Shown: positions 3,718 to 47,205 of the stretch, one piece after another
Layout of the letters: each line of letters opens with the position of its first letter
Position numbering within the stretch: position 1 is the first letter of the stretch
Origin: Escherichia phage F2
Sequence record: NC_054913.1
DNA: 64,000 bases
Strand: one strand, 5' to 3'
Notes under the pieces: generated by a model
What the model was told of the DNA's origin: nothing
Database searches by the model: none
The model's input: only the letters and a program-made list of their open reading frames with translations
Position numbers and translations under genes: made by a program

Positions 3718-3740
3718 GGGAGACTTCGGTCTCCCTTTTG
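3718..3740 (+). terminator. rho-independent terminator hairpin
   Basis: GGGAGAC-TTCG-GTCTCCC followed by TTTTG. Confidence 0.6.
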
Positions 3741-3772
3741 TGCGTTTAGGGCAGAAAAAGTTTAAAAAAGAT

Positions 3773-3801
3773 GTTTACTCTCCTGTAGGATGTGTTACTA
3801 T
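3773..3801 (+). promoter_or_regulatory. T4-type early promoter
   Basis: GTTTAC at 3773-3778, 17-bp spacer, TACTAT at 3796-3801; downstream block shared with the other early promoters. Confidence 0.55.
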
Positions 3802-3842
3802 AGACTTGTACCACCTAATCAATAAAACAATCGGAGAATAAA

Positions 3843-4211
3843 ATGAAAATCAATCTGAACTCATACATCAAATGTAAAGACCACGACGGTTATAAAGCTA
3901 TCGAAATTAAAGAATTCCAGTGGATGTTATACAAAGAGCAATTTGAGTTCGTAGGTTGTATGACCCCTGAAGGTCCTTCAGATGATTTCTCTTGGAAAAT
4001 TGTGTTAGCAAACTTTTTCACAGGTGACACATACGAATTAAAAACTATTATTACCGGTAAAATTCGTTCAGAAACATATGTTGACGAAGAAACTGGTTAC
4101 TCTGAAGATGTTACATGGTATCAAAATGGACGCATTACAGCAGATAACCTGATCGAAAAAATGAAAGCCAAAGGTGTTTTAAATTTAGACAATTGGATTA
4201 AAGTTGCATAA
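3843..4211 (+). CDS. hypothetical protein (ORFan, 122 aa)
   Basis: ORF with RBS GGAGAATAAAATG and its own early promoter. Confidence 0.55.
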   Translation: MKINLNSYIKCKDHDGYKAIEIKEFQWMLYKEQFEFVGCMTPEGPSDDFSWKIVLANFFTGDTYELKTIITGKIRSETYVDEETGYSEDVTWYQNGRITADNLIEKMKAKGVLNLDNWIKVA

Positions 4212-4215
4212 AACA

Positions 4216-4255
4216 GTTTACTTTGGTACAGGTTATGTTATTATAGACCTGTACC
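4216..4255 (+). promoter_or_regulatory. T4-type early promoter with stem-loop (PeSL-like)
   Basis: GTTTAC at 4216-4221, 17-bp spacer, TATTAT at 4239-4244; perfect 8-bp inverted repeat GGTACAGG (4225-4232) / CCTGTACC (4248-4255). Confidence 0.6.
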
Positions 4256-4285
4256 AACAAACAACTTAAACATCTGGAGAATAAA

Positions 4286-4651
4286 ATGAACTACACCAAC
4301 TTCGAACGCAAATATGTTTCTAACGGTATCGCTGGTTCTATCGATATGGTTTGTTTGTGGAAGCATAAAAATGGTTCAGTATGTGAAATTGAGCAGTGCA
4401 TGACTCCTAATTATGTTTATATGCGATTTGAAAATGGCATCACTGTTTCAATCACGATGGAAGGTTCCAACTTCAAAATTGCATTAGATGACGATTTCCG
4501 TCAACGTGATTTAGGTACTCATCCTTGCTGGAACGGTGTTAATCGTAAACTTCTGGTTAAAACTTGGATTCGTCATATCCTGAGTAACCGAGCTAAACCT
4601 GAACATCTCGAAGCAATCTTTGATGTAGTTCTTAACGAATTCGATATCTAA
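4286..4651 (+). CDS. hypothetical protein (ORFan, 121 aa)
   Basis: ORF with RBS GGAGAATAAAATG and its own promoter and hairpin. Confidence 0.55.
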   Translation: MNYTNFERKYVSNGIAGSIDMVCLWKHKNGSVCEIEQCMTPNYVYMRFENGITVSITMEGSNFKIALDDDFRQRDLGTHPCWNGVNRKLLVKTWIRHILSNRAKPEHLEAIFDVVLNEFDI

Positions 4652-4658
4652 TTTAACT

Positions 4659-4674
4659 GGGAGCTTCGGCTCCC
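4659..4674 (+). terminator. stable hairpin (putative terminator or RNA-stability element)
   Basis: GGGAGC-TTCG-GCTCCC; no T-run follows. Confidence 0.4.
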
Positions 4675-4686
4675 ACTGAGGAAATT

Positions 4687-5301
4687 ATGTTTAAAGTTAA
4701 TACTTTTTATAAAATGAATTTTAAAAATGGGGATATTACTCCACGCCTTAAAAACATGTTCTCATATGACCTTATCGAGCCTTTTGAAGTTTTAGAAGTT
4801 ACTGATGCCGGCTCGGTTTGTGAAATTAGAACTTCTGAAGGTAAAATTTATCAGGCAGGTGTTGGTAAATTCAGTAATTGTTTTACTTTAATATTCTCGA
4901 CCGATTTAGATGAGCATTTTATTGAATGTCCTAACCCTAAGGTCCACGAAGTTCCACATCAAGAAACTAAGAAAAATGGCCCGCACGAATATACGAAGGT
5001 TGAAACTCCTCACGGCGTGATGTGGCGTCATAACTCTCCTTTTGGAAGTAAAGGAACATTTGCTCAACCGTCTAAACCGTATGACGATGAAAAATACATC
5101 GTCGTCTTTTTATCTGAACAGGGTACTCAAGACAGTGGATGCCAACGTTCCGGTTTATTGAGTGAACTTGAAGCTCATAACCAAGCACGTGAATTCGTTG
5201 AGAAAAATCCTGGTTCTGAAGCTCTAGTCATGAAAGCAATTACTCAATATATCACTGCTCAACCTGTTGTTCATCCAGTAGAAATTAATTTCGTTAAGTA
5301 G
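4687..5301 (+). CDS. hypothetical protein (ORFan, 204 aa)
   Basis: long ORF with RBS GAGG before the ATG; no motif recognised. Confidence 0.55.
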   Translation: MFKVNTFYKMNFKNGDITPRLKNMFSYDLIEPFEVLEVTDAGSVCEIRTSEGKIYQAGVGKFSNCFTLIFSTDLDEHFIECPNPKVHEVPHQETKKNGPHEYTKVETPHGVMWRHNSPFGSKGTFAQPSKPYDDEKYIVVFLSEQGTQDSGCQRSGLLSELEAHNQAREFVEKNPGSEALVMKAITQYITAQPVVHPVEINFVK

Positions 5302-5331
5302 TTTACATCCAAGGACGGATTAGAGTATAAT
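5301..5331 (+). promoter_or_regulatory. putative early promoter
   Basis: GTTTAC at 5301-5306, TATAAT at 5326-5331; spacer 19 bp, slightly long. Confidence 0.4.
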
Positions 5332-5355
5332 GATTTCTTTAGTAAGTGGAAAAAT

Positions 5356-5553
5356 ATGAAATTTTTAATAGCACAAACAGTTCAATTAAAAGGTGTTGGA
5401 ATTCCTGGGGTGATTTTTAAAGTTCTCCCTGAATTTAAAACCGGCGCTGGAATTATCAATGAAGCGTATGCTGTTCAATGGGTTGATTGGACTTCTGACA
5501 TACGTATGGGTAAAGAGTTATCTCCTATTAAAGGGTTGAAACATGTTGAATAA
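5356..5553 (+). CDS. hypothetical small protein (65 aa)
   Basis: ORF; no motif. Confidence 0.4.
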   Translation: MKFLIAQTVQLKGVGIPGVIFKVLPEFKTGAGIINEAYAVQWVDWTSDIRMGKELSPIKGLKHVE

Positions 5554-5755
5554 ATTAATCCAGAAATTGTTTGGTACGGAAATGATCGAAGTTACTTATC
5601 GTGTAACAGACTGCTCGCCTATTCATCCACAGGATGAACCGTTTATCAAGACAATTAAAATGCTTAAAAATGACGGTGGTTTATCTATTGAAGACCGTCT
5701 GCCTAGTTACGGACATTGGGCTGATGTTGAAATTATAAGTGTTAAAGATGTCTGA
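5543..5755 (+). CDS. hypothetical small protein (70 aa)
   Basis: ORF overlapping the neighbours at both ends. Confidence 0.4.
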   Translation: MLNKLIQKLFGTEMIEVTYRVTDCSPIHPQDEPFIKTIKMLKNDGGLSIEDRLPSYGHWADVEIISVKDV

Positions 5756-6206
5756 ATTAGAAATAAGAAGCAATTTCAAATGGCCGTCATGCGCATTAAG
5801 TAATTTCGCCCAATGGCCTTTTGTTATGGATGGTATTCAATTCGGAGGACTTGAAGGATTTCTCCAAGGATGTAAGGTGAAAAATGTTGAACAACAAAGA
5901 CGTATATTTGGGCTGTCAGGACTGGCCGCACAGCAAGCTGGAAGGTCTTATGCAAGAGCTCAGGACCATGGGACTCTCTTCTGGTTAGGAGTTCCATTTT
6001 CAAGATACTCTGAAGCATGGAAAGAATTATATACAAATGCATATTTTGAAGCAGCGATCCAAAACAAGGGGTTTCGCGACGCCTTACAAGCCTCTAAAGG
6101 AAAAATTTTGAAGCACAGCATGGCCAGCCACCTAACAAAAGATGATACAATATTAACTGAAGCTGAATTTATTGATGTGTTAAACCTATTAAGAGACTCT
6201 TTATGA
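5748..6206 (+). CDS. NADAR-domain protein (YbiA-like; putative ADP-ribose or N-glycoside hydrolase)
   Basis: LSNFAQWP and DGIQFGGLEGFLQGCKV match the NADAR signature as recalled from E. coli YbiA (FSNFAAWP, DGKTWPTSEHYFQAQKF); ATG at 5748; stop overlaps next start (ATGA). Confidence 0.65.
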   Translation: MSELEIRSNFKWPSCALSNFAQWPFVMDGIQFGGLEGFLQGCKVKNVEQQRRIFGLSGLAAQQAGRSYARAQDHGTLFWLGVPFSRYSEAWKELYTNAYFEAAIQNKGFRDALQASKGKILKHSMASHLTKDDTILTEAEFIDVLNLLRDSL

Positions 6207-7018
6207 AGCCTACTATTTTGACTGATATTGATGGTGTATGTTTAAGCTGGCAATCTGGACTTCCTTATTTTGCCCAAAAATATAATCTTCCATTAGAACA
6301 TATTTTAAAAATGATTCAGGACGAAAAATTTATTTCTCCTGGTAAACTGTTCAATACCGACGATAACCTTGGTAAACAATTAATAGAAAAATATAATAGC
6401 TCTGATTTTATTCGTTACTTAGCGCCTTATTCGGATGCTCTTCGAGTTATCAATAAACTAAAAGAAGACTATAATTTTGTAGCCGTGACGGCGCTAGGTG
6501 ATTCAATTGATGCTCGATTGAATAGACAATTTAATTTGAATGCTTTGTTCCCAGGCGCTTTTTCTGAAGTAATGATGTGTGGTCATGATTCGTCAAAGGA
6601 ACAATTATTTGAACTAGCTAAAACAAAATATAACGTGATTTGTTACGTTGACGATTTAGCTCATCACTGTGACCATGCGGCAGAAATTCTTAATGTACCG
6701 ATTTATTGGTTGGCTCGTGGTGAACGTGATGATATTCCTCGCACTGCACAACGTGTACACACGTGGGATGATATTGAATCTCGTTTGGTTTCACCCGAGC
6801 ATAATTCAGATTCAGATCGTGAAGACCTTTTAAAACGATTGGCGGATTTGCTTAAAGAATCTGGTGCAACAAGTCCAGGTGCATGGCCTAATCAAATTGG
6901 CGCTCCGTCGAATCCGTATACCTGGCGAAACCAAGGACCGACTGATATGCAGCCATGGTGGACGATTCAAAACTTTCCTTTAGATTCGTCCAAATGGACT
7001 TGGTCTACAAATTGTTAA
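6203..7018 (+). CDS. HAD-superfamily phosphatase (5'(3')-deoxyribonucleotidase-like) with a Trp-rich C-terminal extension
   Basis: HAD motifs DIDGV (motif I), VAVTAL (II), conserved Lys, YVDD (IV); C-terminal ~80 aa unrelated and W-rich. Confidence 0.6.
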   Translation: MKPTILTDIDGVCLSWQSGLPYFAQKYNLPLEHILKMIQDEKFISPGKLFNTDDNLGKQLIEKYNSSDFIRYLAPYSDALRVINKLKEDYNFVAVTALGDSIDARLNRQFNLNALFPGAFSEVMMCGHDSSKEQLFELAKTKYNVICYVDDLAHHCDHAAEILNVPIYWLARGERDDIPRTAQRVHTWDDIESRLVSPEHNSDSDREDLLKRLADLLKESGATSPGAWPNQIGAPSNPYTWRNQGPTDMQPWWTIQNFPLDSSKWTWSTNC

Positions 7019-7027
7019 GGGTTAATT

Positions 7028-7297
7028 ATGTTTGTAGTTCATGATATTACAGATGGCAAAAACACCACACGTGACTACGGTCACGTTAACATGTTCTTTC
7101 GAGACTGGCCATTGTTTCGTTCAGTAAAAGACGCAGAAATATTTAAAGAGTGTGTTGAACAAGGGTTCATCTACATTTCAGAATACTATGTTGAAGGACT
7201 CGGTAAATGGATTACCACTTATCAGAAAACGCTGAAATCGCTTCTAGATGAAGTGGCTTATAATAGAACCGTAACCAAAATCGAGGACATCAAATGA
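7028..7297 (+). CDS. hypothetical protein (89 aa)
   Basis: ORF directly upstream of the ligase gene with a 4-nt overlap. Confidence 0.5.
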   Translation: MFVVHDITDGKNTTRDYGHVNMFFRDWPLFRSVKDAEIFKECVEQGFIYISEYYVEGLGKWITTYQKTLKSLLDEVAYNRTVTKIEDIK

Positions 7298-8787
7298 TTT
7301 TAGATATTTTAAACCAAATAGCTGCGATCGGTTCTACTAAAACAAAACAAGAAATCCTTAAGAAAAATAAGGACAACAAATTACTTGAACGTGTGTACCG
7401 TTTAACATATGCACGTGGTATCCAGTATTATATTAAGAAATGGCCAGGACCTGGTGAAAGGTCTCAAGCGTATGGACTTCTTGAATTAGATGACATGTTG
7501 GATTTTATTGAGTTCACATTAGCCACTCGTAAACTCACTGGTAATGCTGCAATTAAAGAGCTCATGGGTTATATCGCTGATGGTAAACCTGATGATGTAG
7601 AAGTCCTTCGTCGCGTAATGATGCGCGACCTTGAAGTAGGTGCTTCAGTGTCTATCGCGAATAAGGTGTGGCCTGGACTTATTCAATTGCAACCACAGAT
7701 GTTAGCATCTGCATATGATGAGAAATTGATTACTAAAAATATTAAATGGCCCGCATTTGCCCAATTAAAAGCAGATGGTGCTCGTTGTTTCGCTGAAGTC
7801 CGCGATGGTGGTGTTCAATTCTTTTCTCGTGCCGGTAACGAATACCATGGTCTTACTCTATTAGCGGATGAACTAATGGAAATGACTAAAGAAGCTCGTG
7901 AAAGACACCCTAATGGGGTTTTAATCGACGGTGAATTAGTTTATCATTCATTCGATATTAAAAAGGCTGTGAGCTCAGGAAATGATCTGTCGTTCTTATT
8001 TGGTGATAATGAAGAATCCGAAGAAGTACAAGTTGCAGACCGTAGCACTTCAAATGGTTTAGCAAATAAATCTCTTCAAGGGACTATTTCTCCTAAAGAA
8101 GCGGAAGGTATGGTTCTTCAAGCCTGGGACTATGTTCCTTTAGATGAAGTCTATTCTGATGGCAAAATTAAAGGTCAGAAATACGATGTTCGTTTTGCTG
8201 CTCTTGAAAATATGGCTGAAGGCTTTAAACGAATTGAACCTATCGAAAACCAGTTAGTTCGTAATCTTGACGAAGCTAAAGTGGTTTATAAAAAATATGT
8301 TGACCAAGGTCTTGAAGGTATTATCCTTAAAAACCGTGATTCATACTGGGAAAACAAACGCTCTAAGAACCTAATTAAATTTAAAGAAGTTATTGATATC
8401 GCTTTAGAAGTTGTAGGATACTATGAACACTCTAAAGACCCTAACAAATTAGGTGGTGTCGAACTCGTATCACGTTGTCGTCGTATTACAACCGATTGTG
8501 GTTCAGGGTTTAAAGATACAACTCATAAAACAGTTGATGGTGTAAAGGTTCTTATTCCTTTAGATGAGCGTCATGATTTGGACCGTGAACGATTAATGAC
8601 CGAAGCTCGTGAAGGTAAATTGATTGGACGTATTGCTGATTGTGAATGCAATGGTTGGGTTCATTCTAAAGGACGTGAAGGCACTGTAGGTATTTTCCTT
8701 CCAATTATTAAAGGGTTCCGTTTTGATAAAACAGAAGCGGATTCGTTTGAAGACGTATTTGGACCGTGGTCCCAGACAGGTTTATAA
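7294..8787 (+). CDS. 30: ATP-dependent DNA ligase
   Basis: 497 aa; N-terminus collinear with T4 gp30 from recall (MIL.ILN.IA.IGSTK.KQ.IL.KNKDN.LL.RVYRLTY); adenylation motif KADGAR. Confidence 0.9.
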   Translation: MILDILNQIAAIGSTKTKQEILKKNKDNKLLERVYRLTYARGIQYYIKKWPGPGERSQAYGLLELDDMLDFIEFTLATRKLTGNAAIKELMGYIADGKPDDVEVLRRVMMRDLEVGASVSIANKVWPGLIQLQPQMLASAYDEKLITKNIKWPAFAQLKADGARCFAEVRDGGVQFFSRAGNEYHGLTLLADELMEMTKEARERHPNGVLIDGELVYHSFDIKKAVSSGNDLSFLFGDNEESEEVQVADRSTSNGLANKSLQGTISPKEAEGMVLQAWDYVPLDEVYSDGKIKGQKYDVRFAALENMAEGFKRIEPIENQLVRNLDEAKVVYKKYVDQGLEGIILKNRDSYWENKRSKNLIKFKEVIDIALEVVGYYEHSKDPNKLGGVELVSRCRRITTDCGSGFKDTTHKTVDGVKVLIPLDERHDLDRERLMTEAREGKLIGRIADCECNGWVHSKGREGTVGIFLPIIKGFRFDKTEADSFEDVFGPWSQTGL

Positions 8788-8975
8788 TGAAAGCTTATTT
8801 AGAAACAGTTATTGTAGCTAAGAAGGATGGTGGAGATGTTTCCACCTCTTGCTCTCAGATTATATTAGATTTTCCTAATGAAAATTCGTATCGGGTTTTC
8901 GTAGATAACGTTAATGGGTACGAAAAAGGCCCTAATTTTGAAGTTTATCGTACTTTGCTCCCGATTGTGGATTAA
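8787..8975 (+). CDS. hypothetical small protein (62 aa)
   Basis: ATG overlaps the ligase stop (TAATG); followed by a terminator. Confidence 0.4.
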   Translation: MKAYLETVIVAKKDGGDVSTSCSQIILDFPNENSYRVFVDNVNGYEKGPNFEVYRTLLPIVD

Positions 8976-8996
8976 GAGCCTTCGGGCTCTTTTTGG
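8975..8996 (+). terminator. rho-independent terminator
   Basis: AGAGCC-TTCG-GGCTCT followed by TTTTT. Confidence 0.6.
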
Positions 8997-8997
8997 C

Positions 8998-9011
8998 ATA
9001 AATATAAATTA
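8998..9011 (+). promoter_or_regulatory. putative late promoter upstream of alt
   Basis: overlapping near-consensus CATAAATA / TATAAATT about 20-30 bp before the alt ATG. Confidence 0.35.
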
Positions 9012-9030
9012 TTACTAAAAGGAAAACACT

Positions 9031-11118
9031 ATGTCTGAACAATTAAATGAAGTGTTTGAATCTGAAGGCAGTCTTCCTGTCGTCAATTTGAACCCTAAAG
9101 CTAAAGTTCCACAAGTCTGGAAAATTGGTGATATCGATACAAACATCGTAGTTCGCTTATTCTCTTACCTTTCTGAAGGCGATGCTGTAAAACAAGTTAA
9201 ACTTGGCGACAAATACGCTCATGTTGTTATTATGAGTCTGTCTGAAAAGGGTAATCTCGCTGAATTGAAAAATGGCCTTGGTCCTGCTCCTATTGATGCA
9301 ATCAACACCATTTTCAATACGGTATATGAACAGGTTAAAGCTCTTCGTATGGATGCAGTTCTGTTCCGGTTCCCTACCAAGAAATTGAAAGGACGTGGAC
9401 AACAGCTTCAAACTCTTCTTGCTCGTTTAGTTTCTACTAAAACTGGCGGTCGTTTTAAAGTATTGTCAGCAATGTATCAATTCACAGGTAAACACACCTA
9501 TGTGATGATGGTTCGTAAAAATGCCAACATTGAAGATATTAAAGGCATCCCTAACATTAACACAGAGTTGTACACGAAAGTAGATTCTGATGTTGGCGAA
9601 GTTTATGTGAGTAAAAAGACTGGTGAAATGGTCACCAAAGAAGCGGCTATCGCTGGTTCTATTGCTGCTGTAGAAGAAAAACGTAAAGATAAGCCTGTTA
9701 TTGCTCGTACTAAAATTTCTCGTCGTGCTATTGCAGCAAGTCAATCTTTAGAAGCTGACCGCCAAGAAGGTGAGTTATTCCAGAAATACGAAAATTCTGC
9801 TAAAGAAGTTAGTGGCCCAGCTACAGCCGAATTACTTCCTGAAGCATATGAAATCGTACTAGCCCAAGCATCGTCCACAGCAAAAGGCACTTTAGTTGCT
9901 GATATCGAAAATAAGATTTATAATCGTATTGATGAATCCTTTAGATTTGCTGATGAAGTTTCTTATGGTAGTGTTATTAAGCCAACTTTAGAAAAGTTTG
10001 CTAAGAAAATTAAAACTGAAAAAACAACATCTGTTAAAGCATTAGCTGCTTTTGTTGAAGCTGCAAATGAAATTGCAGACTCTATTAAAGACGAATGGTT
10101 TGAAGATTTTAGACGTGATAATTTCCAACTGGCCGACGACGTTTTAGCTGAAGTATCTGAAAAAACTTGGAAACAACGTAAATCAGCGTTCTTGTCTAAT
10201 GTGATGTATACTTATGCACGAGAATCGGCTAGAGGCACCTTTAATATAACAATGAATCGGGACCCTAAACAATACTCTGTTGCTGAAAAACGAGCTATTC
10301 GTGAATATGCCTCTTCTGCGTATACCGATATCAATAATATGTTGTTAGGTCGTTATAAACCAGATTTTTACGATGTTGCAGATGAAGATGAAGTTAAACG
10401 CGCTATTGATGGTCTTGATTCGGCGTTTTTAAATGGAGACCGTTTACCTGAAGGACTAACGTTATATAGAGCCCAGTCTATCAGAATGCCTATTTACGAA
10501 GCAATGGTTAAAAATAAGGTATTCTACTTCAGAAACTATGTTTCCACTTCACTAGCTCCTATTATTTTCGGTGGGTTTAAAGAGAACGTTGCCCTTGGAC
10601 TTGCTCCTGAAGAAGTTCGCAAAGAGCTTAACATTGACAATAATGACGAAGGTGTTACTATTTCTCCTAGTCAAGTAAGAACAGCTATGCATGCACCAGA
10701 CCAAATCCGTGTTAACGTTGGATGGGCTATTGATGGCGCCCATAAAGTTAACGTGATTTATCCTGGACAGTTGAGTAATCACCCTAATGAGCAAGAAATT
10801 ATTTTGCCTAGAGGCATTCTCTTGCAGATAAATAAAATTACGGATGCGTCATCTGACACTGGTGCAGGTTTAGAATCCAACCTTAAATTTATTCAAGCTG
10901 AAGTCATGTCCTCAGACCAGTTGGACGAAGTTGTCATTTACGATGGTGATGTTCTCATGGAAACAGGCGAGGTGGTTGCTATGACTGGTGAAATCGAATC
11001 AGATGAGCCGATATCGTTCTCCTCATTTGTAGAAAAAACTAGTGCTCCTAAAGGATTGAAATTGTTAGCATCTTTAATGGATTTAGAATCAGTTCCGTTT
11101 AAATTTGTCCAAGGATAG
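9031..11118 (+). CDS. alt: Alt-type ADP-ribosyltransferase (capsid-packaged, modifies host RNA polymerase)
   Basis: 695 aa versus T4 Alt 682; position between gene 30 and gene 54; ART motifs YRAQS (Arg), YVSTSLA (STS), QEIILPRG (catalytic Glu region). Confidence 0.75.
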   Translation: MSEQLNEVFESEGSLPVVNLNPKAKVPQVWKIGDIDTNIVVRLFSYLSEGDAVKQVKLGDKYAHVVIMSLSEKGNLAELKNGLGPAPIDAINTIFNTVYEQVKALRMDAVLFRFPTKKLKGRGQQLQTLLARLVSTKTGGRFKVLSAMYQFTGKHTYVMMVRKNANIEDIKGIPNINTELYTKVDSDVGEVYVSKKTGEMVTKEAAIAGSIAAVEEKRKDKPVIARTKISRRAIAASQSLEADRQEGELFQKYENSAKEVSGPATAELLPEAYEIVLAQASSTAKGTLVADIENKIYNRIDESFRFADEVSYGSVIKPTLEKFAKKIKTEKTTSVKALAAFVEAANEIADSIKDEWFEDFRRDNFQLADDVLAEVSEKTWKQRKSAFLSNVMYTYARESARGTFNITMNRDPKQYSVAEKRAIREYASSAYTDINNMLLGRYKPDFYDVADEDEVKRAIDGLDSAFLNGDRLPEGLTLYRAQSIRMPIYEAMVKNKVFYFRNYVSTSLAPIIFGGFKENVALGLAPEEVRKELNIDNNDEGVTISPSQVRTAMHAPDQIRVNVGWAIDGAHKVNVIYPGQLSNHPNEQEIILPRGILLQINKITDASSDTGAGLESNLKFIQAEVMSSDQLDEVVIYDGDVLMETGEVVAMTGEIESDEPISFSSFVEKTSAPKGLKLLASLMDLESVPFKFVQG

Positions 11119-11152
11119 TTTACAAACACATGGATGTGTGATACTATCATCC
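11118..11152 (+). promoter_or_regulatory. T4-type early promoter (PeSL-like)
   Basis: GTTTAC at 11118-11123, TACTAT at 11142-11147, imperfect inverted repeat GGATG / CATCC around the -10. Confidence 0.5.
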
Positions 11153-11163
11153 CATCAACAACA

Positions 11164-11470
11164 CGAGGAAAACGTTATGAAATCTATGCTTCGCTTTAAT
11201 GGTCAAGAACTAGTAGTTGAAGATGTTATCCCAGCGGATGATGCTTTTAACGAAGCTGTGATTGACGAATTGAATCGAGTATTCCCAGGTGCATTCCATA
11301 TTGCTATGGAACCTCTTAAAAACTTTCGTGACCCTGAACACACTGATCAAATTTTTGTCGGTGTAGTGACGGGTCATTTAGAAACAGAGGTACCAATGGT
11401 CGTATTAGTTAAATACTCTAAAGATGATACTCCATTCCGAGCACCAGCATTCCTTTCATTCCGTAAATAA
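11164..11470 (+). CDS. hypothetical protein (102 aa)
   Basis: ORF with RBS GAGGAAAACGTTATG; own promoter and terminator. Confidence 0.5.
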
Positions 11471-11479
11471 ACCCCTAAA

Positions 11480-11502
11480 GGGAGACGTTGTCTCCCTTTT
11501 TC
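11480..11502. terminator. bidirectional terminator hairpin between convergent genes
   Basis: GGGAGAC-GTT-GTCTCCC followed by TTTTTC on +, A-run on the other strand. Confidence 0.55.
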
Positions 11503-11503
11503 T

Positions 11504-13575: not shown

Positions 13576-13583
13576 GATAATCC

Positions 13584-17755: not shown

Positions 17756-17772
17756 AATTACTCCTTTTCTAT

Positions 17773-17784
17773 TATTTATAAATA
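17773..17784. promoter_or_regulatory. divergent overlapping late promoters for gene 51 (-) and gene 26 (+)
   Basis: TATTTATAAATA: TATAAATA readable on both strands between divergent late genes. Confidence 0.55.
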
Positions 17785-17802
17785 CACAATAAAGGAGTTA
17801 AC

Positions 17803-18827: not shown

Positions 18828-18907
18828 TGCTTCAAGGCAACCTATGTATAATGGTTTTAGGTCCTTCCGATACAGCCGGGAGATTATTAGTTAAAAGAGA
18901 GAACATT

Positions 18908-19545: not shown

Positions 19546-19549
19546 ATAG
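19542..19549 (+). promoter_or_regulatory. late promoter
   Basis: exact TATAAATA 29 bp before ATG 19578. Confidence 0.5.
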
Positions 19550-19577
19550 ATATGTAATTTCAACTTAGGAGGCAATC

Positions 19578-20036: not shown

Positions 20037-20047
20037 TTTTATCTCCT

Positions 20048-20063
20048 AAGGGCCGAAGCCCTT
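20048..20063 (-). promoter_or_regulatory. intercistronic UUCG-type hairpin
   Basis: AAGGGC-CGAA-GCCCTT between the uvsW stop and the uvsW.1 start. Confidence 0.4.
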
Positions 20064-21576
20064 ATAAATTAATTGTTTTCATTACATAGTTAAATTTCTC
20101 ATCAGCGTAACGTTGGATACGATCAATACCGTGTTTTAACAAGTAATTAAGATGAGTATACTTCTTTTTAGTATTTAATGATTTAGGTTTTACACCTGCG
20201 TCATCTATGAGATCCCAAACTGTAGCAACAGCTTTAGAACCATGCTTACGAAGCACACGACCTACGGTTTGAAGTACGATAATTTTTGATTTAACACCAT
20301 GGGCGAAAATAACATGATGAAGATTCTTGACTGAAATACCAGTAGAGAATACTCCATATGATGCGACAATAATAATGCCTTTACCATTTTCTGCCATGAC
20401 TTTAAGCGCGTTACGTGTTTCAGTATCAACTTCACCTGATACGTAATAAACTTTTTCGTATCCAAGCTCTTTAATAGCTTCAAATATTTCTTTACCGTGT
20501 GTAACGTGTTTAAACATTACAAAGGCGTTCTCGTCTTTCTTAGCCAATTTGACTGAAAGTTGAGCAATCCACTTTGTACGTCGTTTTAGTCCAGTAATAA
20601 TTTTAACTTCTTCTTGGTATGTTTTACCTTTTAATTTAACGGCGAATTCGTCCGGATAACGAAGGAAAATACTATTAATCTTAAGCTCAGTTACCTGTCC
20701 GTCTTCCATTAATTTAGACGTGCTAACAGGACGGAAGATTTCGCCGAACATACCTACGTACTGCATTACATTAGCTTTTCCGTCTCTTAATGAGCCAGAT
20801 AAACCGAATTTAAACATGCAATTATTTAATCCTGAGATGATTGAAGAAATACTTTTGCCTGTGGCTAAGTGGCATTCATCGTTCATCATCATACCGAACT
20901 GAGAGAACCATTCTTTAGGCTGCTTAACTACTGTTTGCCATGTACCAACAATAATTGGAGCGTCGTTTTTAGCTCTGTCCGCTTTATCAGCACCACCGCC
21001 AATTTTCTTAATCATCGAATGACTAAACAAACGATAATCAACAAAATCATTAGCCATCTGGGTTGTCAATGCTGTTGTAGGGACGATAATGAGAATTTTA
21101 CCTTCATAGTTCTCTAGATAATATCGAGCTAAAAGTGCTTGGATTAGTGATTTACCTGCTGATGTCGGAAGGTTTAAAATTCGACGACGATTAACTAGTC
21201 CTTCGTATACTGCATCTTTTTGATACCAATGTGGTTCGATTTTGGCGTTGCCCGAATAAATTTCTTGTTTAGAAAGCCATGCGTCAAAATCTTCCCTGGT
21301 AAGGTCTTCAGTCTCAAAGATTTTAGGGTCAATCCATACAGAATAACTCATATTGTTACAGAACTTTTTTATTTGTCCTACAAGTCCATATGGTAACAAA
21401 CGGTTATAATCTAAAAGTCGAATTCTACCATCCCATTGCCCATAGCGATATTTTGGGTTAAATTTATACCCGTCAGCTTCAAAGCTAAAAAAGTCACGAA
21501 GTTCGTAAAACGTACTTTCGTCGCATTCAATGCGCACGTGACTAAAATCATAAAAATGTACTTTAATGTCAGTCAT
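20062..21576 (-). CDS. uvsW: UvsW RNA-DNA / DNA helicase
   Basis: 504 aa versus T4 502; Walker A PTSAGKS, DECH box, SF2 helicase motifs. Confidence 0.85.
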   Translation of the reverse strand: MTDIKVHFYDFSHVRIECDESTFYELRDFFSFEADGYKFNPKYRYGQWDGRIRLLDYNRLLPYGLVGQIKKFCNNMSYSVWIDPKIFETEDLTREDFDAWLSKQEIYSGNAKIEPHWYQKDAVYEGLVNRRRILNLPTSAGKSLIQALLARYYLENYEGKILIIVPTTALTTQMANDFVDYRLFSHSMIKKIGGGADKADRAKNDAPIIVGTWQTVVKQPKEWFSQFGMMMNDECHLATGKSISSIISGLNNCMFKFGLSGSLRDGKANVMQYVGMFGEIFRPVSTSKLMEDGQVTELKINSIFLRYPDEFAVKLKGKTYQEEVKIITGLKRRTKWIAQLSVKLAKKDENAFVMFKHVTHGKEIFEAIKELGYEKVYYVSGEVDTETRNALKVMAENGKGIIIVASYGVFSTGISVKNLHHVIFAHGVKSKIIVLQTVGRVLRKHGSKAVATVWDLIDDAGVKPKSLNTKKKYTHLNYLLKHGIDRIQRYADEKFNYVMKTINL

Positions 21577-23147: not shown

Positions 23148-23152
23148 TCGTA

Positions 23153-23180
23153 AGGGGCTTCGGCCCCTTTCTTCGTTTTT
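23153..23180 (+). terminator. rho-independent terminator
   Basis: AAGGGGC-TTCG-GCCCCTT followed by a T-rich tract. Confidence 0.6.
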
Positions 23181-24817: not shown

Positions 24818-24846
24818 GAAAAAGGGACCGTAAGGTCCCTTTGTTT
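24818..24846. terminator. bidirectional terminator between rnlB and gene 24
   Basis: AAAGGGACC-GTAA-GGTCCCTTT flanked by A and T runs. Confidence 0.6.
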
Positions 24847-27162: not shown

Positions 27163-27172
27163 AAACAAGAAT

Positions 27173-27190
27173 GGGAGACCGGAGTCTCCC
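27173..27190. terminator. hairpin between convergent genes (putative terminator)
   Basis: GGGAGAC-CGGA-GTCTCCC. Confidence 0.45.
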
Positions 27191-27219
27191 ATAAGGTTAT
27201 GTATTTTAACGTTAAAGCA

Positions 27220-33174: not shown

Positions 33175-33182
33175 TATTTATA
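33175..33182 (-). promoter_or_regulatory. late promoter for gene 19
   Basis: TATTTATA on + between the gene 18 stop and the gene 19 start. Confidence 0.45.
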
Positions 33183-33203
33183 TGGGCTACCGAAATAGCC
33201 CAT
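33182..33203 (-). terminator. hairpin after gene 18
   Basis: ATGGGCTA-CCGAAA-TAGCCCAT. Confidence 0.45.
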
Positions 33204-39189: not shown

Positions 39190-39811
39190 AATTCCATCCT
39201 GCCCATTTAGGTTTGTTGTTTTTGCATCGGCCTATAACCGCGCTTGATGTGATATTAAATTCTTCACCACATTCTTTGCAGGTGTTAAATATTTTACCAT
39301 TTACACTAACTTTTCGAGCTGCTGGATTTTTTGAACCAGAAAAATCAGGATGTCTATGTTTGAAATCTTTCCACATTCTTGCTGTAGATTCTTTACGTTT
39401 TCTTAACCCTTCTTCAGTCCATTTTCTTGATTTTGCGGCGTCAGACATTTTCTTTTTAGATTGGGCTGAACGTTTTTGTCCTATAGATGGATTATCTTCT
39501 GGGTTAATATACGACCTTCCGCCTGCACCACCTTTAACAAGATTTGCGCAATTTTCTAAAATGGATAATTCATCTACCAGTAACTCTTCAGCTTCATCCA
39601 TTAGAGCTTTAGATTCAAATGGCTTAGACCATATAATTTCTTTTATACAAGACGGACCGTATTTTCTTTTGGCCCTTCGTATAAAGGTACCAGACCCAGT
39701 ATAAGGGTCTTTTGAAGGGTCTTCGTAAACTGATTTGTGTTTACCACCATAAATCTTTATACCGGTGGATGTTTCAAATGTTGTAATATACAATCTGTAG
39801 TATGTTGCCAT
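39176..39811 (-). CDS. GIY-YIG homing endonuclease inserted between genes 13 and 14
   Basis: [28 protein letters not shown] motif, downstream R, E, N; NUMOD-like basic repeat; C-terminal CKECGEEF Zn finger. Confidence 0.65.
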
Positions 39812-40750: not shown

Positions 40751-40766
40751 AGGGCCCGAAGGCCCT
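40751..40766 (-). promoter_or_regulatory. intercistronic UUCG hairpin between wac and gene 13
   Basis: AGGGCC-CGAA-GGCCCT on + (UUCG loop on the mRNA strand). Confidence 0.4.
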
Positions 40767-42220: not shown

Positions 42221-43803
42221 TATTTTACCTTAATGATATAGTTTAAAGAAATATTCCATGGGCGAGTTTCATTTCCAATTAATTCCGGACGATTCATGGT
42301 ATATTTAGAGTTACGCTGAGACGCTGGATCAATTTCATATCCCTCGTTAGTAAAATACGAACGGTTATCCCAGTCAAGTCCTTTACGAGTACCAACAAAG
42401 TTTGAACGACGAGTATTACCAAATGCACCGGAATCGTCATGTTCACCAAAACCACCAGCATGCTTATGATATGACATCTGTTGTTTTTGCACTTCACCAA
42501 CATATCCACCAGTACAACCTACCGCCAGACGAGGCTTACCGAATTGGTCATTACCATTAACATTAGGGTTAGTTAAATGGTTACCACGACCTGAGCCGCG
42601 AACAAATAATCCACGCATATCAGGCAAGCCTGGGTTAGAAGAACTACCACCATATCGTGTCCCAATTCTGGAAGCATATACCGGACATTCTGAAGCAGAA
42701 ACAGTCCCACCGTGACAGAAACGCCAGTCAGAACTCGGTAAACTATCTGCAGCCCACATTGTAATAGCGCCAACTGGAAGAATTCGGTCTAATTCATTTT
42801 GAGTCACAATACGATTGCCTTGAATATAACCACCAGTCATATTGACATTACCCGTTATATTAGCGCCACCAGAACCAACCGTCAACGTATTATTAATGCG
42901 AAGCGTGCCATTAATAGTTTGTCCACCTCGTTGGTGGATAACATCAGCATTCCAAGCAAGGGCAGAAGAACCATCACCACCTGATTGGCTACCCGCTTGT
43001 GTAGTTAAACGAACAACTCCACGTAAAGAAGTTGTAGCCCCACGCCCGTTTAATGTTGCGCCGGTCACTACAACTGAAGAGTTGTTACTATTTACTTCAG
43101 TCTGTGTCCCTAGTTTAACGACACCTTTATTAGTTTCTGATGCTACTGAATTCATAAAGGTATAAGGTGAAATTGCATAGCCTTCACGCAGGGTGCCTTG
43201 TTGTGCTTGAGCAACTGTAGCCAAACGAACAACACCTGTAATAGATTCGGTGGCGTCACTATTATTTGGAGCAATTTGCGAAATAAGTTTAATTGCTAAT
43301 TGTTGCGTTTTTAACGGAGTCATTGCCGTTGTATCGTCAGAACCAGCTAATGCCGCGGCAGAAGTTGAAATTTTAATTACACCATTTGTTGCTTCTGTTG
43401 ACACTTTTGTCTGAAATACATTGTCTATTTTTTGATTCAATTTAAGCGGAGTAATTGATGCATCGTCAATAGCTCCGGTTACTGCTTCATCTTCAGTAGC
43501 ATAACGAGTTAAGCCATATTGTGTTTCGGTTGCATTAGGATATTGTAGACGAGCATTCAGTGTTGCCGGAGTAACAGCTTTACTATTATCTAATCCATCA
43601 ATAACTTCTTGTGGAGTAGCTATTTGAATAATTCCTGGTGTAGTAGTTGTTGCTTCCGGTACGCCATTAACACCTGAAGGAGAAATAGCAGCTAATGCGG
43701 CTTGGACATTAGTGACTGTATCTGGAAAATTCGACCCCGTAGGGTCGAATTCAACGTAAATGGATTCGTTTGAAACGTGTTGGTATGTATTGTTATTACT
43801 CAT
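42220..43803 (-). CDS. 12: short tail fibre protein gp12
   Basis: 527 aa as T4 gp12. Confidence 0.85.
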
Positions 43804-44459
43804 GAGGCTCTCACAAAGTGGTAGAAAACGGTAGGAGTGTTATGGTTATCAAGAGTAACCGTTTGGGCACCCAATAAATTCCATGTTCCGTATCCGGATT
43901 TTGCTTCAGACAAAATTTCTTGTGAAATTGTTACACCAAACGAAGCATATGTTGGCAACACATGACGTTGGTTATCTAAATATGTCACCTGAAGTTTATT
44001 ACCTTCGGTCGGATGGTCTTTATAAGAAGAAATAGCGATTTGATTAGCAATGGCTTCTTGTAAAGCTATACGAACTTGTGCCGTTAATTCGTTATCAGTC
44101 ATACCGATTGTTGCTTTAACAGCAAGTCCAAATACGTTAATAACGACCGGCGTTCCAGGGGCCAAAGTATCGTCGAGAACATCACCAGAAAAAGTCCAAT
44201 AATCAACTTGTGCTGTACCTTCAGGCGATACGCCTGAAGTGTTTGTGACAACAGTACCAATATCAGCTCGTGCCATATTATGGACATCATTTATTGCAGA
44301 TTCTACGTTAGCATCATAAAAACCGCGAGCTAACTGAGAAATAGTCACTGAACCTACAGCTTGGTTGTTTAAAACATCAATTTGAGCTGGATTTTTTCTG
44401 TAATTCAAAAAATCAGCATGACGGGAAATAACTCCCGCCTTTGTATTAAGTACAGTCAT
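43800..44459 (-). CDS. 11: baseplate wedge / short-fibre attachment protein gp11
   Basis: 219 aa from internal ATG ([13 protein letters not shown]...), as T4 gp11. Confidence 0.8.
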
Positions 44460-46264
44460 TATGCAATCCTTACCCAACGGTATACAGTTATAGATGGCTG
44501 AATATTAGTTATAGAACGCGCTGGAACATGAGATCCGTTAGTCTTTGCATGGTCTTCACGATATTTAGTGTAAATAGGACCTTCTTCATCTGGGTCATAT
44601 TGGCAACCGCCTATAATTACTGTACCATTATCATCAGAAATAAGAACCTTTTCATCGGTTTGCGTAGCTGGTAAATCAGCATTTTCTAATGTGATGGTTG
44701 TTACACCAACGGTACCACCTGCGGTATGAGTAGGGTTACCATTGATGTCAAGGTCATTATTATTTAATGCAAAATTAGGATCCGACGCGTCGTCATTCCA
44801 ACCTGCTAATACTTTGCCTTGTCCCCAAATTTTCCACGAACCAAAACCTAAATAAGTTGCCGGATTATTAGGGTTAACCGCATTTTCGTAAATAGTCCCG
44901 ACAGGATAAATTGTATCAAATATTGCTGAGATAGTCGAGAATTCACGTTCATACTTAGGAACAGGTTCTACATTAGGCCATCCAATTTTATCGAAATCGG
45001 TTAATGCAACGTCACCAGTAATTTCAATGTTAGACCCTTGAGAAACATATTTCTCATCAGCGACATCAAGGATTTCGTCCATTTCAAGAAGAGTTCCTAA
45101 ATCGTTATTAAACCATGTGATGGTAATAATGTCTTGGTCTTCAAATTGACGATCAAACAAAATTGCGCTAGGGATATTATCAGTATACTCAATCGCATAA
45201 TCTGTATACGATTGAGTCCATGTCCCGCCGAGGTTTGTGCATGACTCTTCAGAATCAGCATCCACACCTTCACAACGGAAAATAGGAGTACCAACAGTGC
45301 CAGCTAATTCTTGGAGAATACCATTGAAGCGAACTTCTAACGAATTCGGGTTAGGTGGTTCCGTAGGATTAATACCAAATGCTGTAAATGGAATAGACCG
45401 GAACGTACTCAAATCAGTGACGTAAATACTTCCGTCAATAGACTTTTTAGCAGTCAATTTACTATCTAAAATGCGAACTTGGCGACGAGTATATGAACTA
45501 CGCCACTGAGAAACACCATCTAGGAATGTCTCAATTTGTACGGTGTCCCCAACATTACATGGTTGGCGTAATCTGATATTAAATCCATCAAGTGCAACCA
45601 GTTCACCGGGATTAGCGCCTGGAGAACCAAAATCACTATTATCACTGAATACATCACCATAATACAATTCGTTGCCACGATGTTTTACGCGAATGTTGTT
45701 AACGTTATAAGAGGTCCCGTTAAAAACATCCATGAAATCGGTCTGTCCTTGGGTTTCAACCAGATATTCTCTACGAGCAACATTACTAATGTCAGAGCTA
45801 ACTATTTTATCAATTTGTTTGTTCTTGATATATTCCCAACGTCCAGGAGCACAATAAACTAATTCTAAATCAGAGAACTGAACGTTAATTTCTACCGGAG
45901 ATGAAGAACCTTTAATCGTGTCTCCGTTTGCCGGAATTAAAGTAACAGGGTTAATGTTCCAAGTTGCAAATACGTCACGAGCACGAATAACTTTATTATA
46001 GTCTGCAATTGTCCCTTTAGGAAGATTTACCGAAACCCGGCCAGAAGTAGTATTAATTGCATAAGATTTACCCCAAGCCGCCTTAAGATTAAGACCATCA
46101 GCCGCATCATAAGTCTTCCATGCGCCAGCGGAATAAGGAACTTCACCATCACCTAATTCATAATAGATTTCGTCAAAGTTCTCATTTATTTTTTCACCAC
46201 CTCGACGAAGGTAATCGCCTTGTCCGTCATCAACGACGTTACCAATTTTAATATTTTGTTTCAT
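44459..46264 (-). CDS. 10: baseplate wedge protein gp10
   Basis: 601 aa versus T4 602. Confidence 0.8.
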
Positions 46265-47136
46265 TATTGAGCGACCCCAATTTTCTGAGTTGAGATAATT
46301 TTAACTGCCGAACGTAATCCAATAATATCAGATGTAATCGTCATAGTAACAAAGTTGTTAATAATACTAAAGCTAATATTAGCAATCTCGTCGGTTTCAT
46401 CTACATTACCAACTCGCATTACTGCAAATTCGGTAGAAAGAACTTCTGAGTTAATTGTATCTATTAGAATATTTATTTCGCATGTTTTTATTTTTCTACC
46501 GTCAGCGGATTGGCATGTAACAAGCAATTTAGCCATGTTATAATCTGTACGATAAAAGAGAGGAATAGAAACTGTGTTTCCTGTAAGACTCCAAGTCCCA
46601 TCGACAGGAGATTCTTTCTGCCCAAACATGCTATCAGTAGAATAATTCCATACTGAAGTTGGCCCATTAATTTCAATACAACGAAGAACAACATGGGTAT
46701 AAGGGGTGGAAATAACAAGATTATTAAGAACGCCTTTAATTGAACCATCGGTTACTTGGATACTTAAAGGATTGTTAACAGAAATAGACCCATTAGAGTT
46801 TATGAATTCTACAGAGTCACCTAATTCAGGACGGTCAATAATAACAATCACACCGCCATCAGAAGCATCAATATCATGCATGGTGCCAGGTTTAATAGGA
46901 GTTTGATAATCGACAGCCTTTCCTTTTTGATAATAGCCTGTGGCATGAATAGTTTGACCTGTTGGTCCGGTTCCATCTGCTACGGCCATTTTACGTTGAT
47001 CGCCAAATGCATTGTAAATAGCGTTGATATCGTCATTTATTTTATTACCACCGTCGAATAAGATATCACCTGTTGAGGCATTACCAATTTCGCCGGTATC
47101 GATTAATTGTTTAGGAGTTTGCTTAAAAAATGCCAT
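46264..47136 (-). CDS. 9: baseplate wedge / long-fibre socket protein gp9
   Basis: 290 aa versus T4 288. Confidence 0.8.
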   Translation of the reverse strand: MAFFKQTPKQLIDTGEIGNASTGDILFDGGNKINDDINAIYNAFGDQRKMAVADGTGPTGQTIHATGYYQKGKAVDYQTPIKPGTMHDIDASDGGVIVIIDRPELGDSVEFINSNGSISVNNPLSIQVTDGSIKGVLNNLVISTPYTHVVLRCIEINGPTSVWNYSTDSMFGQKESPVDGTWSLTGNTVSIPLFYRTDYNMAKLLVTCQSADGRKIKTCEINILIDTINSEVLSTEFAVMRVGNVDETDEIANISFSIINNFVTMTITSDIIGLRSAVKIISTQKIGVAQ

Positions 47137-47168
47137 AATTCTGCCTTTTGTTGTCCGATATTATATTC

Positions 47169-47176
47169 TATTTATA
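47169..47176 (-). promoter_or_regulatory. late promoter for gene 9
   Basis: TATTTATA on + 33 bp before the gene 9 start. Confidence 0.45.
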
Positions 47177-47187
47177 GATACAAAAAT

Positions 47188-47205
47188 GGGAGCCCGAAGG
47201 CTCCC
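47188..47205 (-). terminator. hairpin after gene 8
   Basis: GGGAGCC-CGAA-GGCTCCC. Confidence 0.45.

Follow-up and report, generated by a model that had tools for sequence, protein, structure and literature searches.

The 64,000-nt stretch of Escherichia phage F2 that was analysed here (NC_054913.1; hereafter the window) contains five hairpins with nearly the same GGGAG(A/C)C stem, at positions 3717, 4658, 11477, 27171 and 47188, and five related GC-rich hairpins, at 8974, 20047, 23152, 24821 and 40751 (Table 1; each hairpin is named by its first position). These ten hairpins are very probably standard T4-type intercistronic stem-loops that act as terminators or stabilisers, with a short G-rich/C-rich stem that is usually capped by a C(UNCG)G or GNRA loop. 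By its features, the class is apparently an already known and ordinary one, its members being orthologues of the classical CUUCGG hairpins found between T4 genes. The stem that they share probably represents a preferred design that was reached convergently, with a small and uncertain share contributed by cassette exchange within the phage lineage. The first-pass annotation had listed all ten hairpins, each of which was recovered, and had taken the shared stem as a sign of a dispersed repeat, possibly co-mobilised with promoter cassettes. That interpretation is largely unsupported, as the hairpin positions are fixed across T4-like phages, the stems change by compensation and the flanking sequences are mostly not shared.

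The window represents, to judge from its closest matches, an RB69-like T4-type phage of the genus Mosigvirus. A 6-kb piece of it shows 98–99% identity to Escherichia phages JQD51, JS09 and HX01 and 97% identity to ATK47. JS09 and ATK47 are both filed under Mosigvirus, the genus of RB69-like phages among the T4-type myoviruses.

A non-random class of hairpins

The window contains 19 perfect GC-rich hairpins (stem of at least 6 with at least 4 G/C, loop of 3–4 nt), as opposed to the 3.06 ± 1.8 expected from 200 dinucleotide shuffles. With the stem set at 7 bp or longer, 16 were found and 1.3 expected; arms containing GGGAG numbered 5, where 0.01 were expected. This enrichment rules out a chance origin and confirms that the hairpins are a real, non-random class with a recurring stem. 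The bare 7-mer GGGAGMC is not itself over-represented, with 9 matches against 4.5 expected, a number that was reached in 5 of 100 shuffles. The ten hairpins have stems of 6–10 bp, with predicted RNA stabilities of −11.5 to −19.4 kcal/mol and z-scores of −1.9 to −6.0 against shuffled sequences. An Rfam 15 scan of the whole window at the gathering score returned three tRNAs and no match to any hairpin. A simple promoter/terminator scanner, which is too crude for stems this short, was run on positions 1–20000; it reported 15 terminators where shuffling gave 12.8 and, of the listed hairpins in that range, flagged only 11477.

All ten hairpins lie in intergenic gaps or overlap the edge of a gap or a stop codon, and every one of them sits 3' of a stop codon on the transcribed strand. 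Because the genes around 20047, 27171, 40751 and 47188 are on the minus strand, the RNA loops at these sites are UUCG (UCCG at 27171) and not CGAA or CGGA. Read in this way, eight of the ten hairpins carry a C(UNCG)G tetraloop on the transcribed strand: UUCG with a C-G closing pair at 3717, 4658, 8974, 20047, 23152, 40751 and 47188, and UCCG at 27171. The exceptions are 11477, with a 3-nt loop (GUU/AAC), and 24821, with a GNRA loop (GUAA). A U-rich tail follows 3717, 8974, 11477 (on the plus strand), 23152, 24821 and 47188, and a weaker one (UCUUGUUUCU) follows 27171. No such tail was found at 4658, 20047 and 40751, where the ribosome-binding site of the next gene (30.6A, uvsW.1 and gene 13, respectively) starts 1–4 nt beyond the end of the hairpin; downstream of 4658, a GAGGA ribosome-binding site and an ATG both fall inside 12 nt. 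The depositors of the ATK47 genome annotated terminators at the sites matching 3717, 4658, 8974, 23152 and 24821.

The strand specificity of the loops bears on the possibility that the palindromes act mainly as DNA, either as cruciform or hairpin hot spots of recombination or as replication signals, with the RNA structure being incidental. The stems are indeed perfect palindromes, hairpin 27171 adjoins the boundary of an indel relative to JS09, and the 3–4-nt loops of the hairpin between alt.-3 and gene 54 flip between near-identical phages, which implies an intrastrand hairpin or template switching. At 11477, the loop (11487–11489) reads GTT in the window and in ATK47 and its reverse complement, AAC, in JQD51, JS09 and one IMG/VR contig, with identical flanks in relatives that are >98% identical. 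Loops at the same junction also flip in other lineages (GTGA/TCAC, GTAT/ATAC and TTAC/GTAA), and the change at 11477 looks like a flip-flop inversion within a perfect palindrome between convergent genes. However, the strong UNCG/GNRA bias is specific to the transcribed strand and would make sense at the RNA level alone. In addition, it is the transcribed side that carries the U-rich tails, hairpin placement goes with stop codons, and the indel in question (26225–27159) is explained by a homing-endonuclease open reading frame (ORF). We consider a mainly DNA-level role very unlikely.

Conservation of hairpin positions and covariation of stems

Orthologous regions were collected from IMG/VR using the ligase (19 loci), gp23 (75 loci), gp8 (58 loci) and gp36 (27 loci) as anchors, and T4 was added to the set; gp8 was used instead of gp9, which gave only three loci. 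The anchor proteins ligase, gp23 and gp8 of the compared phages are ~55–96% identical to those of the window. In T4 and about 60 other T4-like phages, the same junctions carry a hairpin in almost every phage, with a different stem. At the site 3' of gene 30.9 (3717), the orthologous stems are GGGAGAC, GGGACTC, GGGACTCC (GGGACUCC as RNA) and GGGAACC, and T4 has AGGACUCC-UUCG. Orthologues of 4658 include GGAGGC-UUCG, AUGGGGC-UACG, GAGCC-UUCG and GGGCUC-UAAA, always right before (U)GAGGA, together with AGGGGC-UUCA in T4. Those of 8974 have the stems AAGGCC, AAGGAGCC, AAAAGGGC and AGGACC with a loop that is mostly UUCG, and those of 11477 have GGAGAGC, GGGAGCC, GGGACC, GGGAGAGC and GGGAGC. At the site 3' of gp23 (27171), many loci have AUGGGAGAC-UUCG, and others have GGGAGCC, GGGACC, GGGAACC, GGAGCC or GGGAGAGC-GAAA. 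The site 3' of gp8 (47188) carries GGGAGAC, GGGAGCC, GGGACCC, GGAGAC, GGGCC, GGGACC, GGGACUCC and GCCACC, nearly always with TATAAATA next to it.

T4 has hairpins at eight of the ten sites and at one additional site, 33182. Like the hairpins of the window, the CUUCGG hairpins of T4 have a UNCG loop closed by a C-G pair and an intergenic place in a T4-type genome. They differ in their stems, which in this region are GGGAACC, GGACUCC, GGGGC, GGGGCC, GGACC, GGGACC and GGCC, with no GGGAG stem among them, whereas GGGAG(A/C)C occurs at five sites of the window and at eight sites in the complete genome of its closest relative. The T4 hairpin after hoc is identical to 23152. The site corresponding to 24821 has AAAGGGACC with a GAAA/UUUC loop, the one between genes 18 and 19 (33182 in the window) has GGCCUG-UUUCGG-CAGGCC followed by AUAUAAAUA, and the one corresponding to 40751 has UGGGGCC-GCAA. 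A search of the region after uvsW in T4 gave no hairpin; the gene 8/9 junction is not part of the T4 stretch that was compared.

Base pairing was counted in gapless, loop-centred sets of hairpins, a MAFFT alignment having put four sequences out of register. At the gp23 site, pairs 1–7 are kept in 33–34 of 34 distinct sequences with 2–4 Watson-Crick pair types per position, and at the gp8/gp9 site they are kept in 28–29 of 29 distinct sequences with a similar variety of pair types; pairs 1–5 are perfect by virtue of the way the hairpins were selected, which takes weight from this part of the evidence, and pairs 6–7 are free of that bias. In a relative that is 92% identical, GGGAGAC occurs where JQD51 has GGGAGCC, the flanks being otherwise identical; this switch is a clean double compensatory change. 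The occupation of the same junctions, together with compensatory changes in the stems, argues that the hairpins are orthologous, structure-selected elements and not recent insertions.

Predicted functions

The hairpins with U tails (3717, 8974, 11477, 23152, 24821, 27171 and 47188) would act as intrinsic, factor-independent terminators or attenuators, the general mechanism of which has been reviewed (PMC2988021), and could also form barriers to 3'-to-5' exonucleases. At the convergent junctions (11477, 24821 and 27171), a perfect palindrome could serve both transcripts, and 11477 is likely to be a two-way terminator. The tail-less hairpins 4658, 20047 and 40751 more likely stabilise RNA ends at the cistron junction and keep the next initiation region unstructured. 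At 47188, the hairpin, the U tail and the late promoter have the organisation of a terminator–late-promoter cassette. A C(UUCG)G cap gives a short stem exceptional stability, folds immediately and is not bound by protein (PMC4371310), properties that would suit junctions of only 20–70 nt.

These predictions are in line with what is known of the class. According to later papers that cite the original work, the intergenic regions of T4 are especially rich in CUUCGG hairpins (Tuerk et al. 1988, PNAS 85:1364, quoted in PMC8948821 and PMC4371310), and the gene 32 mRNA is stabilised by such a hairpin at its 5' end (Tuerk 1988 and Gorski 1985, quoted in PMC8948821). The stem-loops of PeSL (promoter-early stem-loop) cassettes in other T4-like phages have been described as effective terminators, and a reporter assay was set up to test one of them (PMC2839356). 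Seven of the hairpins resemble intrinsic (Rho-independent) terminators in having a GC-rich stem-loop and a U-rich tract after a stop codon; 4658, 20047 and 40751 differ from these in lacking the U tract and in abutting the next ribosome-binding site. As textbook T4-like CUUCGG hairpins, some of which were already annotated as terminators in a sister phage, they have little discovery value. They are useful for annotation in that they mark the ends of transcription units and, where an early or late promoter comes next, delimit a regulatory cassette with it.

Origin of the shared stem

The stems available to T4-like phages were sampled in 251 terminator-like hairpins from 37 non-redundant phage clusters, which were defined by shared 31-mers and join phages that are, by our own estimate, roughly ≥90% identical. 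The commonest stems in this sample are GGGCC (15 hairpins), GGGACC (13), GGAGCC (12), GGGGC (11), GGGAGCC and GGGC (10 each), and GGGAACC and GGGAGAC (8 each), and GGGAG is present in 13.9% of the hairpins. When 15 hairpins are drawn from this vocabulary, the probability that any one stem occurs at least three times is 0.23. The loop-closing pair of the family hairpins is C-G, and the two arms are asymmetric: GGG is found in the 5' arm of 52 of 98 UNCG stems, as opposed to CCC in 8 of 98.

The same design recurs well beyond T4-like phages. The pattern GGGA-NN-C-UUCG-G-NN-UCCC is present in at least 120 very diverse viral contigs of IMG/VR (31–69% G+C), with T runs after nearly all of them. Among the viral matches listed, the most frequent fully paired NN is GA, which gives GGGAGAC, and the fifth position is G in 42 of 75. 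In bacteria, the exact 18-mer GGGAGACTTCGGTCTCCC (GGGAGAC-UUCG-GUCUCCC) is found in at least 120 contigs of many phyla, including Acidobacteriota, Bacteroidota, Firmicutes and many Proteobacteria, and a T run follows it in 103 of the 126 matches listed. It is also present in unrelated viral contigs, mostly with a T run after it. Its presence in unrelated phages and bacteria, which strengthens the likeness to intrinsic terminators, suggests that GGGAGAC-UUCG-GUCUCCC is a generic terminator that arises convergently.

We propose that the GGGAG(A/C)C stem was not copied from a mobile element but is among a small number of designs favoured by a set of shared constraints. These constraints would be a UUCG loop closed by a C-G pair, a GGG/CCC base of the stem next to A- or U-rich flanks, a stem of 6–9 bp in a tightly packed, AT-rich genome, and an arrangement of Gs in the 5' arm and pyrimidines in the 3' arm ahead of the U tract. 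Individual sites would move among the possible stems by compensatory double substitutions. For genome scans, a stem shared among short terminators should be regarded as a weak sign of common descent, because there are few good UUCG-capped stems of 6–8 bp and the same 18-mer arises repeatedly in unrelated phages and bacteria.

Repeats, promoter cassettes and possible exchange between sites

Some of the hairpins would form the terminator half of composite cassettes, in which the promoter is early at 3717 and late at 47188 and 33182, and the short identity between such cassettes might occasionally permit ectopic exchange. Downstream of hairpin 3717 come an early promoter, preceded by an AT-rich tract, and then a ribosome-binding site and an ATG; this is the layout published for PeSL elements (Arbiol et al. 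2010, PMC2839356; Comeau et al. 2014, PMC4122927). It also resembles PeSLs in lying in the variable 30.x region of small ORFs, and the authors of those studies noted stems in which G runs are followed by C runs. Among the five GGGAG hairpins, this layout is limited to 3717, with no early promoter at 4658, 11477, 27171 and 47188. Unlike PeSLs, the other hairpins stand alone, lie between convergent genes or precede a late promoter. The connection with promoter cassettes proposed in the first-pass annotation is supported at 3717 and, through its late promoter, at 47188, but the other three have no early promoter and co-mobilisation is unsupported. Another difference concerns the indels relative to JS09, which are homing-endonuclease ORFs and not PeSL-flanked ORFans: no PeSL-type association with indels or ORF replacements was found in this comparison, both insertions carrying GIY-YIG-like ORFs. 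No PeSL set of Mosigvirus or RB69 is described in PMC2839356 or PMC4122927.

An alternative to convergence holds that a dispersed short repeat gave rise to the hairpins by copying and that hairpin-promoter cassettes spread or become homogenised by ectopic recombination or gene conversion, a process that has been proposed for PeSLs; identical stems would then be a mark of common descent. In addition to the PeSL layout at 3717, this alternative could draw on the genome of the closest relative, where the same promoter layout, GTTTAC-N17-TA(T/C)TAT-AG, follows four other hairpins. One of these, AGGGAGC-UUCG-GCUCCCU-UUUGUGCA, is closely similar to the cassette at 3717, so that the two can be written together as AGGGAG(A)C-UUCG-G(U)CUCCCU-UUUGUGC(G/A)UUU. 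PeSL recombination, including the formation of mini-circles, has been shown experimentally in phages RB49 and phi1 (PMC2839356). Same-stem pairs are slightly commoner within genomes than between them, but the difference (2.35% vs 1.68%) is not significant (P=0.065). Moreover, the hairpin positions are conserved in distant T4-like phages and in T4, and the hairpins would therefore not have been inserted recently. Four of the five GGGAG hairpins lack an adjacent early promoter, and unrelated phages and bacteria have arrived at the identical 18-mer independently. Inspected by eye, the five hairpins have only stop codons and T runs in common beyond the stem. In the genome of the closest relative, most pairs of GGGAG hairpins are at background flank identity, four to six pairs being at or above the background maximum, and mean identity of the upstream flank is 5.2/15 for GGGAG pairs as opposed to 5.0/15 for other pairs. 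On balance, a dispersed repeat appears improbable.

A mobile repeat of the REP or MITE type was considered as a separate candidate and rejected, as most copies show no similarity beyond the stem, the sites are occupied across phages and the 18-mer is not restricted to the lineage. Like bacterial REP/BIME repeats, the hairpins are short GC-rich intergenic palindromes that are present in many copies per genome. REP elements, however, have extended shared sequence, strain-variable presence and specific protein binding, whereas the hairpins described here are conserved in position and have only the stem in common, which itself drifts by compensatory change.

Several observations weigh against convergence as a full account of the shared stem and against the functional assignment. 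GGGAG has about twice its family share both in the window (5 of 15 hairpins; P=0.047 for at least five when drawing from the family vocabulary) and in the complete genome of the closest relative (8 of ~30 terminator-like hairpins; P ~0.05), an excess that the vocabulary model explains only marginally. The eight sites in the relative are the five of the window plus one 3' of gene 32, one between gp35 and gp36 and one further early cassette. Identity of the downstream tails is 7.4/15 for GGGAG pairs as opposed to 5.95/15 for others, a difference that is driven by a few pairs; the highest value is 13/15 among GGGAG pairs, reached by two of them, and 11/15 among the 529 others. In two Mosigvirus-type phages, the cassettes at gp8/9 and gp35/36 of the same phage agree at 29 and 31 of 33 positions, and between phages they agree at no more than 25. 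The agreement of these two cassettes suggests that there has probably been some copying between sites. With respect to function, the assignment was made from sequence, and the three hairpins without a U tract are by the usual definition not intrinsic terminators, their role in end protection or insulation being the least supported step. The reason for the purine-rich 5' arm is our own inference: a G-rich 5' arm and a pyrimidine-rich 3' arm may weaken the RNA:DNA hybrid just before the U tract.

The late cassettes deserve a closer description. In JQD51, those at gp8/9 (47188 in the window) and gp35/36 have 31 identical bases, the block common to window positions 47169–47205 and JQD51 positions 125709–125745 being TTA-GGGAGCC-TTCG-GGCTCCC-ATTTTTGTAT followed by TATAAATA. 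In a second Mosigvirus-type phage, the two cassettes again match each other, with a different tail. The arrangement of hairpin, U tail and late promoter is found at gp8/9 in most T4-like phages and also at gp35/gp36. A two-site test of concerted evolution in ten phages gave an overall P of 0.13, the signal being absent in the other eight phages. The agreement within the two Mosigvirus-type phages speaks for occasional conversion of late cassettes in their lineage. A more specific proposal, which we regard as tentative and rather less than probable, is that the hairpin, the U tail and the late promoter TATAAATA constitute a convertible cassette in RB69-like phages, a late counterpart of PeSLs, whose copies at non-homologous junctions (gp8/gp9, gp35/gp36 and perhaps 3' of gp23 and gene 32) are homogenised within a genome through ectopic gene conversion and diverge between genomes. 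If so, it could explain the roughly twofold share of GGGAG stems in the lineage, and the loop flip-flop at the alt.-3/gene 54 palindrome would be a second sign of recombinational activity at the DNA level. The lineage-limited similarity of late cassettes and the loop inversions represent small leads on DNA-level exchange at palindromes.

Possible protein recognition and RegB

The excess of GGGAG stems could also be seen as a trace of recognition by a phage or host protein, such as an RNase, a termination factor or a DNA-binding recombination protein. Across many phages, the consensus stem at the gp23 site is GGGAG(A/C)C, and recognition of the GGGG...CCCC stems of PeSLs has been the subject of published speculation (PMC2839356). 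However, the stems at every orthologous site are freely replaced through compensatory changes, GGGAG stems are missing from T4 at all of these sites, and bacteria without T4 proteins apparently use the identical hairpin as a terminator. Furthermore, the UUCG tetraloop has no known protein ligand (PMC4371310). Conservation of the stem as a protein-binding site is, in our estimation, very improbable, and a dedicated processing or termination factor, as suggested in the first-pass annotation, is not needed for hairpins that would work as intrinsic terminators or stabilisers and whose secondary structure would block RegB (PMC3014915).

That the GGAG in the 5' arm is a target of the RegB endoribonuclease or a decoy ribosome-binding site, with a role in processing or translational control, is hardly credible. 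RegB does cut GGAG in intergenic regions of early transcripts, RB69 encodes regB (PMC3014915), and hairpins 3717 and 4658 are in the early region. But every base of the GGAG is paired, in stems with predicted stabilities of −13 to −19 kcal/mol, secondary structure protects against the enzyme, and its strong sites have the form GGAGRAYARAA (PMC3014915), which none of the hairpins fits; many family members also have stems without GGAG. When the hairpins were examined as candidate RegB sites in the light of that study, GGAG was found to be paired and followed by (A/C)CUUCG instead of forming an unpaired, A-rich GGAGRAYARAA, and the assignment was rejected.

Features of the window and its source genome

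The ten hairpins, their promoters and other features with defined coordinates are listed in Table 1. An eleventh hairpin of the same kind, absent from the first-pass annotation, was found at 33182; written as AUGGGCUAU-UUCG-GUAGCCCAU, it abuts TATAAATA.

Table 1. Hairpins, promoters and other features located in the window (strand: +, − or. for both)
Feature	Position	Strand	Context and predicted stability
Hairpin A-GGGAGAC-UUCG-GUCUCCC-U, UUU tail	3717..3736	+	4 nt past gene 30.9 stop; −19.4 kcal/mol, z −6.0
T4-type early promoter TTTACT-N16-TACTAT, A-rich tract before	3774..3801	+	3' of hairpin 3717, upstream of gene 30.8
Hairpin U-GGGAGC-UUCG-GCUCCC-A, no U tail	4658..4675	+	Between genes 30.7 and 30.6A; −13.1 kcal/mol
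Hairpin AAGAGCC-UUCG-GGCUCUU, UUUGG tail	8974..8991	+	Overlaps alt.1 stop codon, upstream of alt
Palindromic 10-bp hairpin AAA-GGGAGAC-GUU-GUCUCCC-UUU	11477..11499	.	Between convergent 3' ends of alt.-3 (+) and gene 54 (−)
Hairpin UAAGGGC-UUCG-GCCCUUA, no U tail	20047..20064	−	Contains uvsW stop; directly before GGAG ribosome-binding site and ATG of uvsW.1
Hairpin AAGGGGC-UUCG-GCCCCUU, UCUUCGUUUUU tail	23152..23169	+	After hoc
Hairpin AAAGGGACC-GUAA-GGUCCCUUU	24821..24842	.	Between convergent rnlB (+) and gene 24 (−); −15.7 kcal/mol
GIY-YIG homing-endonuclease-like ORF	26503-27162	+	segD position, convergent with gene 23 as in T4
Hairpin AU-GGGAGAC-UCCG-GUCUCCC-AU, UCUUGUUUCU tail	27171..27192	−	3' of gene 23 (major capsid protein); −16.5 kcal/mol
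Hairpin AUGGGCUA(U)-UUCG-(G)UAGCCCAU	33182..33203	−	Late promoter UAUAAAUA directly after
GIY-YIG homing-endonuclease-like ORF	39176-39811	−	Between genes 14 and 13
Hairpin AGGGCC-UUCG-GGCCCU, no U tail	40751..40766	−	Between wac and gene 13; AAAGGA ribosome-binding site and ATG next
Late promoter TATAAATA for gene 9	47169..47176	−	11 nt beyond hairpin 47188
Hairpin GGGAGCC-UUCG-GGCUCCC, AUUUUUG tail	47188..47205	−	3 nt past gene 8 stop; −15.6 kcal/mol
Three tRNA genes, Met-CAT, Asn-GTT and Arg-TCT	62671-63624	+	

According to the annotation of relatives and of T4, the gene order in the window agrees with those of RB69 and T4. The plus strand carries cd, 31, rIII, 30.9–30.1, 30 (ligase), alt.1, alt and alt.-3, followed on the minus strand by 54, 48, 29, 28, 27 and 51. 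Genes 26, 25 and uvsY are again on the plus strand and uvsW is on the minus strand, followed by inh, hoc, 24.3, 24.2 and rnlB (plus), 24, 23 and onward to 5 (minus), and 4, 2, 3, 1, 57A, internal-protein genes and tRNAs (plus). Intergenic gaps make up ~2.6% of a 50-kb stretch that covers most of the window, as summed by hand from the table of coding sequences (CDS) of the closest relative.

Compared to JS09, the window has two insertions, 26225–27159 and 39155–39801. Hairpins 3717 and 4658 are in the 30.x region, which is collinear in the two phages. Both GIY-YIG ORFs fall in the segments missing from JS09, and both are present in JQD51. The first of them is convergent with hairpin 27171, ending at 27162. 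At this junction, the window has AUGGGAGAC-UCCG with the UCUUGUUUCU tail after gene 23, as in phages whose gp23 is only 84% identical to that of the window, and three phages with gp23 95–96% identical (L023, L042 and L068) have AAGGGACC-UUCG. This distribution suggests a mosaic gene 23 junction beside the endonuclease ORF.

Two further perfect hairpins were found inside genes. A 7-bp hairpin, ACGTGAC-UACG-GUCACGU (7069–7086, plus strand), lies in gene 30.1 across the codons R-D-Y-G-H-V; in relatives, the loop is UUCG and the codons would read R-D-F-G-H-V, so that the loop stays UNCG while the amino acid changes. A 10-bp hairpin, AAUUCGACCC-UACG-GGGUCGAAUU (43728–43751, minus strand), is located ~55 nt inside the start of the gene 12 coding sequence.

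The GenBank record of JQD51 (PV204681.1) has product names at loci L278–L281 that are seemingly offset by one CDS: a 1569-nt CDS of the size of gp23 is named 'homing endonuclease' and the preceding 813-nt CDS is named 'major capsid protein'. The names look shifted, as by an annotation slip in the public record. Near the start of the window, a DAHP synthase gene (aroG-like phospho-2-dehydro-3-deoxyheptonate aldolase; ~636–1628, plus strand) is annotated in relatives just upstream of cd, beside cd.2/cd.3. In T4, only the small ORF cd.1 is found directly upstream of cd, where the T4 stretch that was compared ends.

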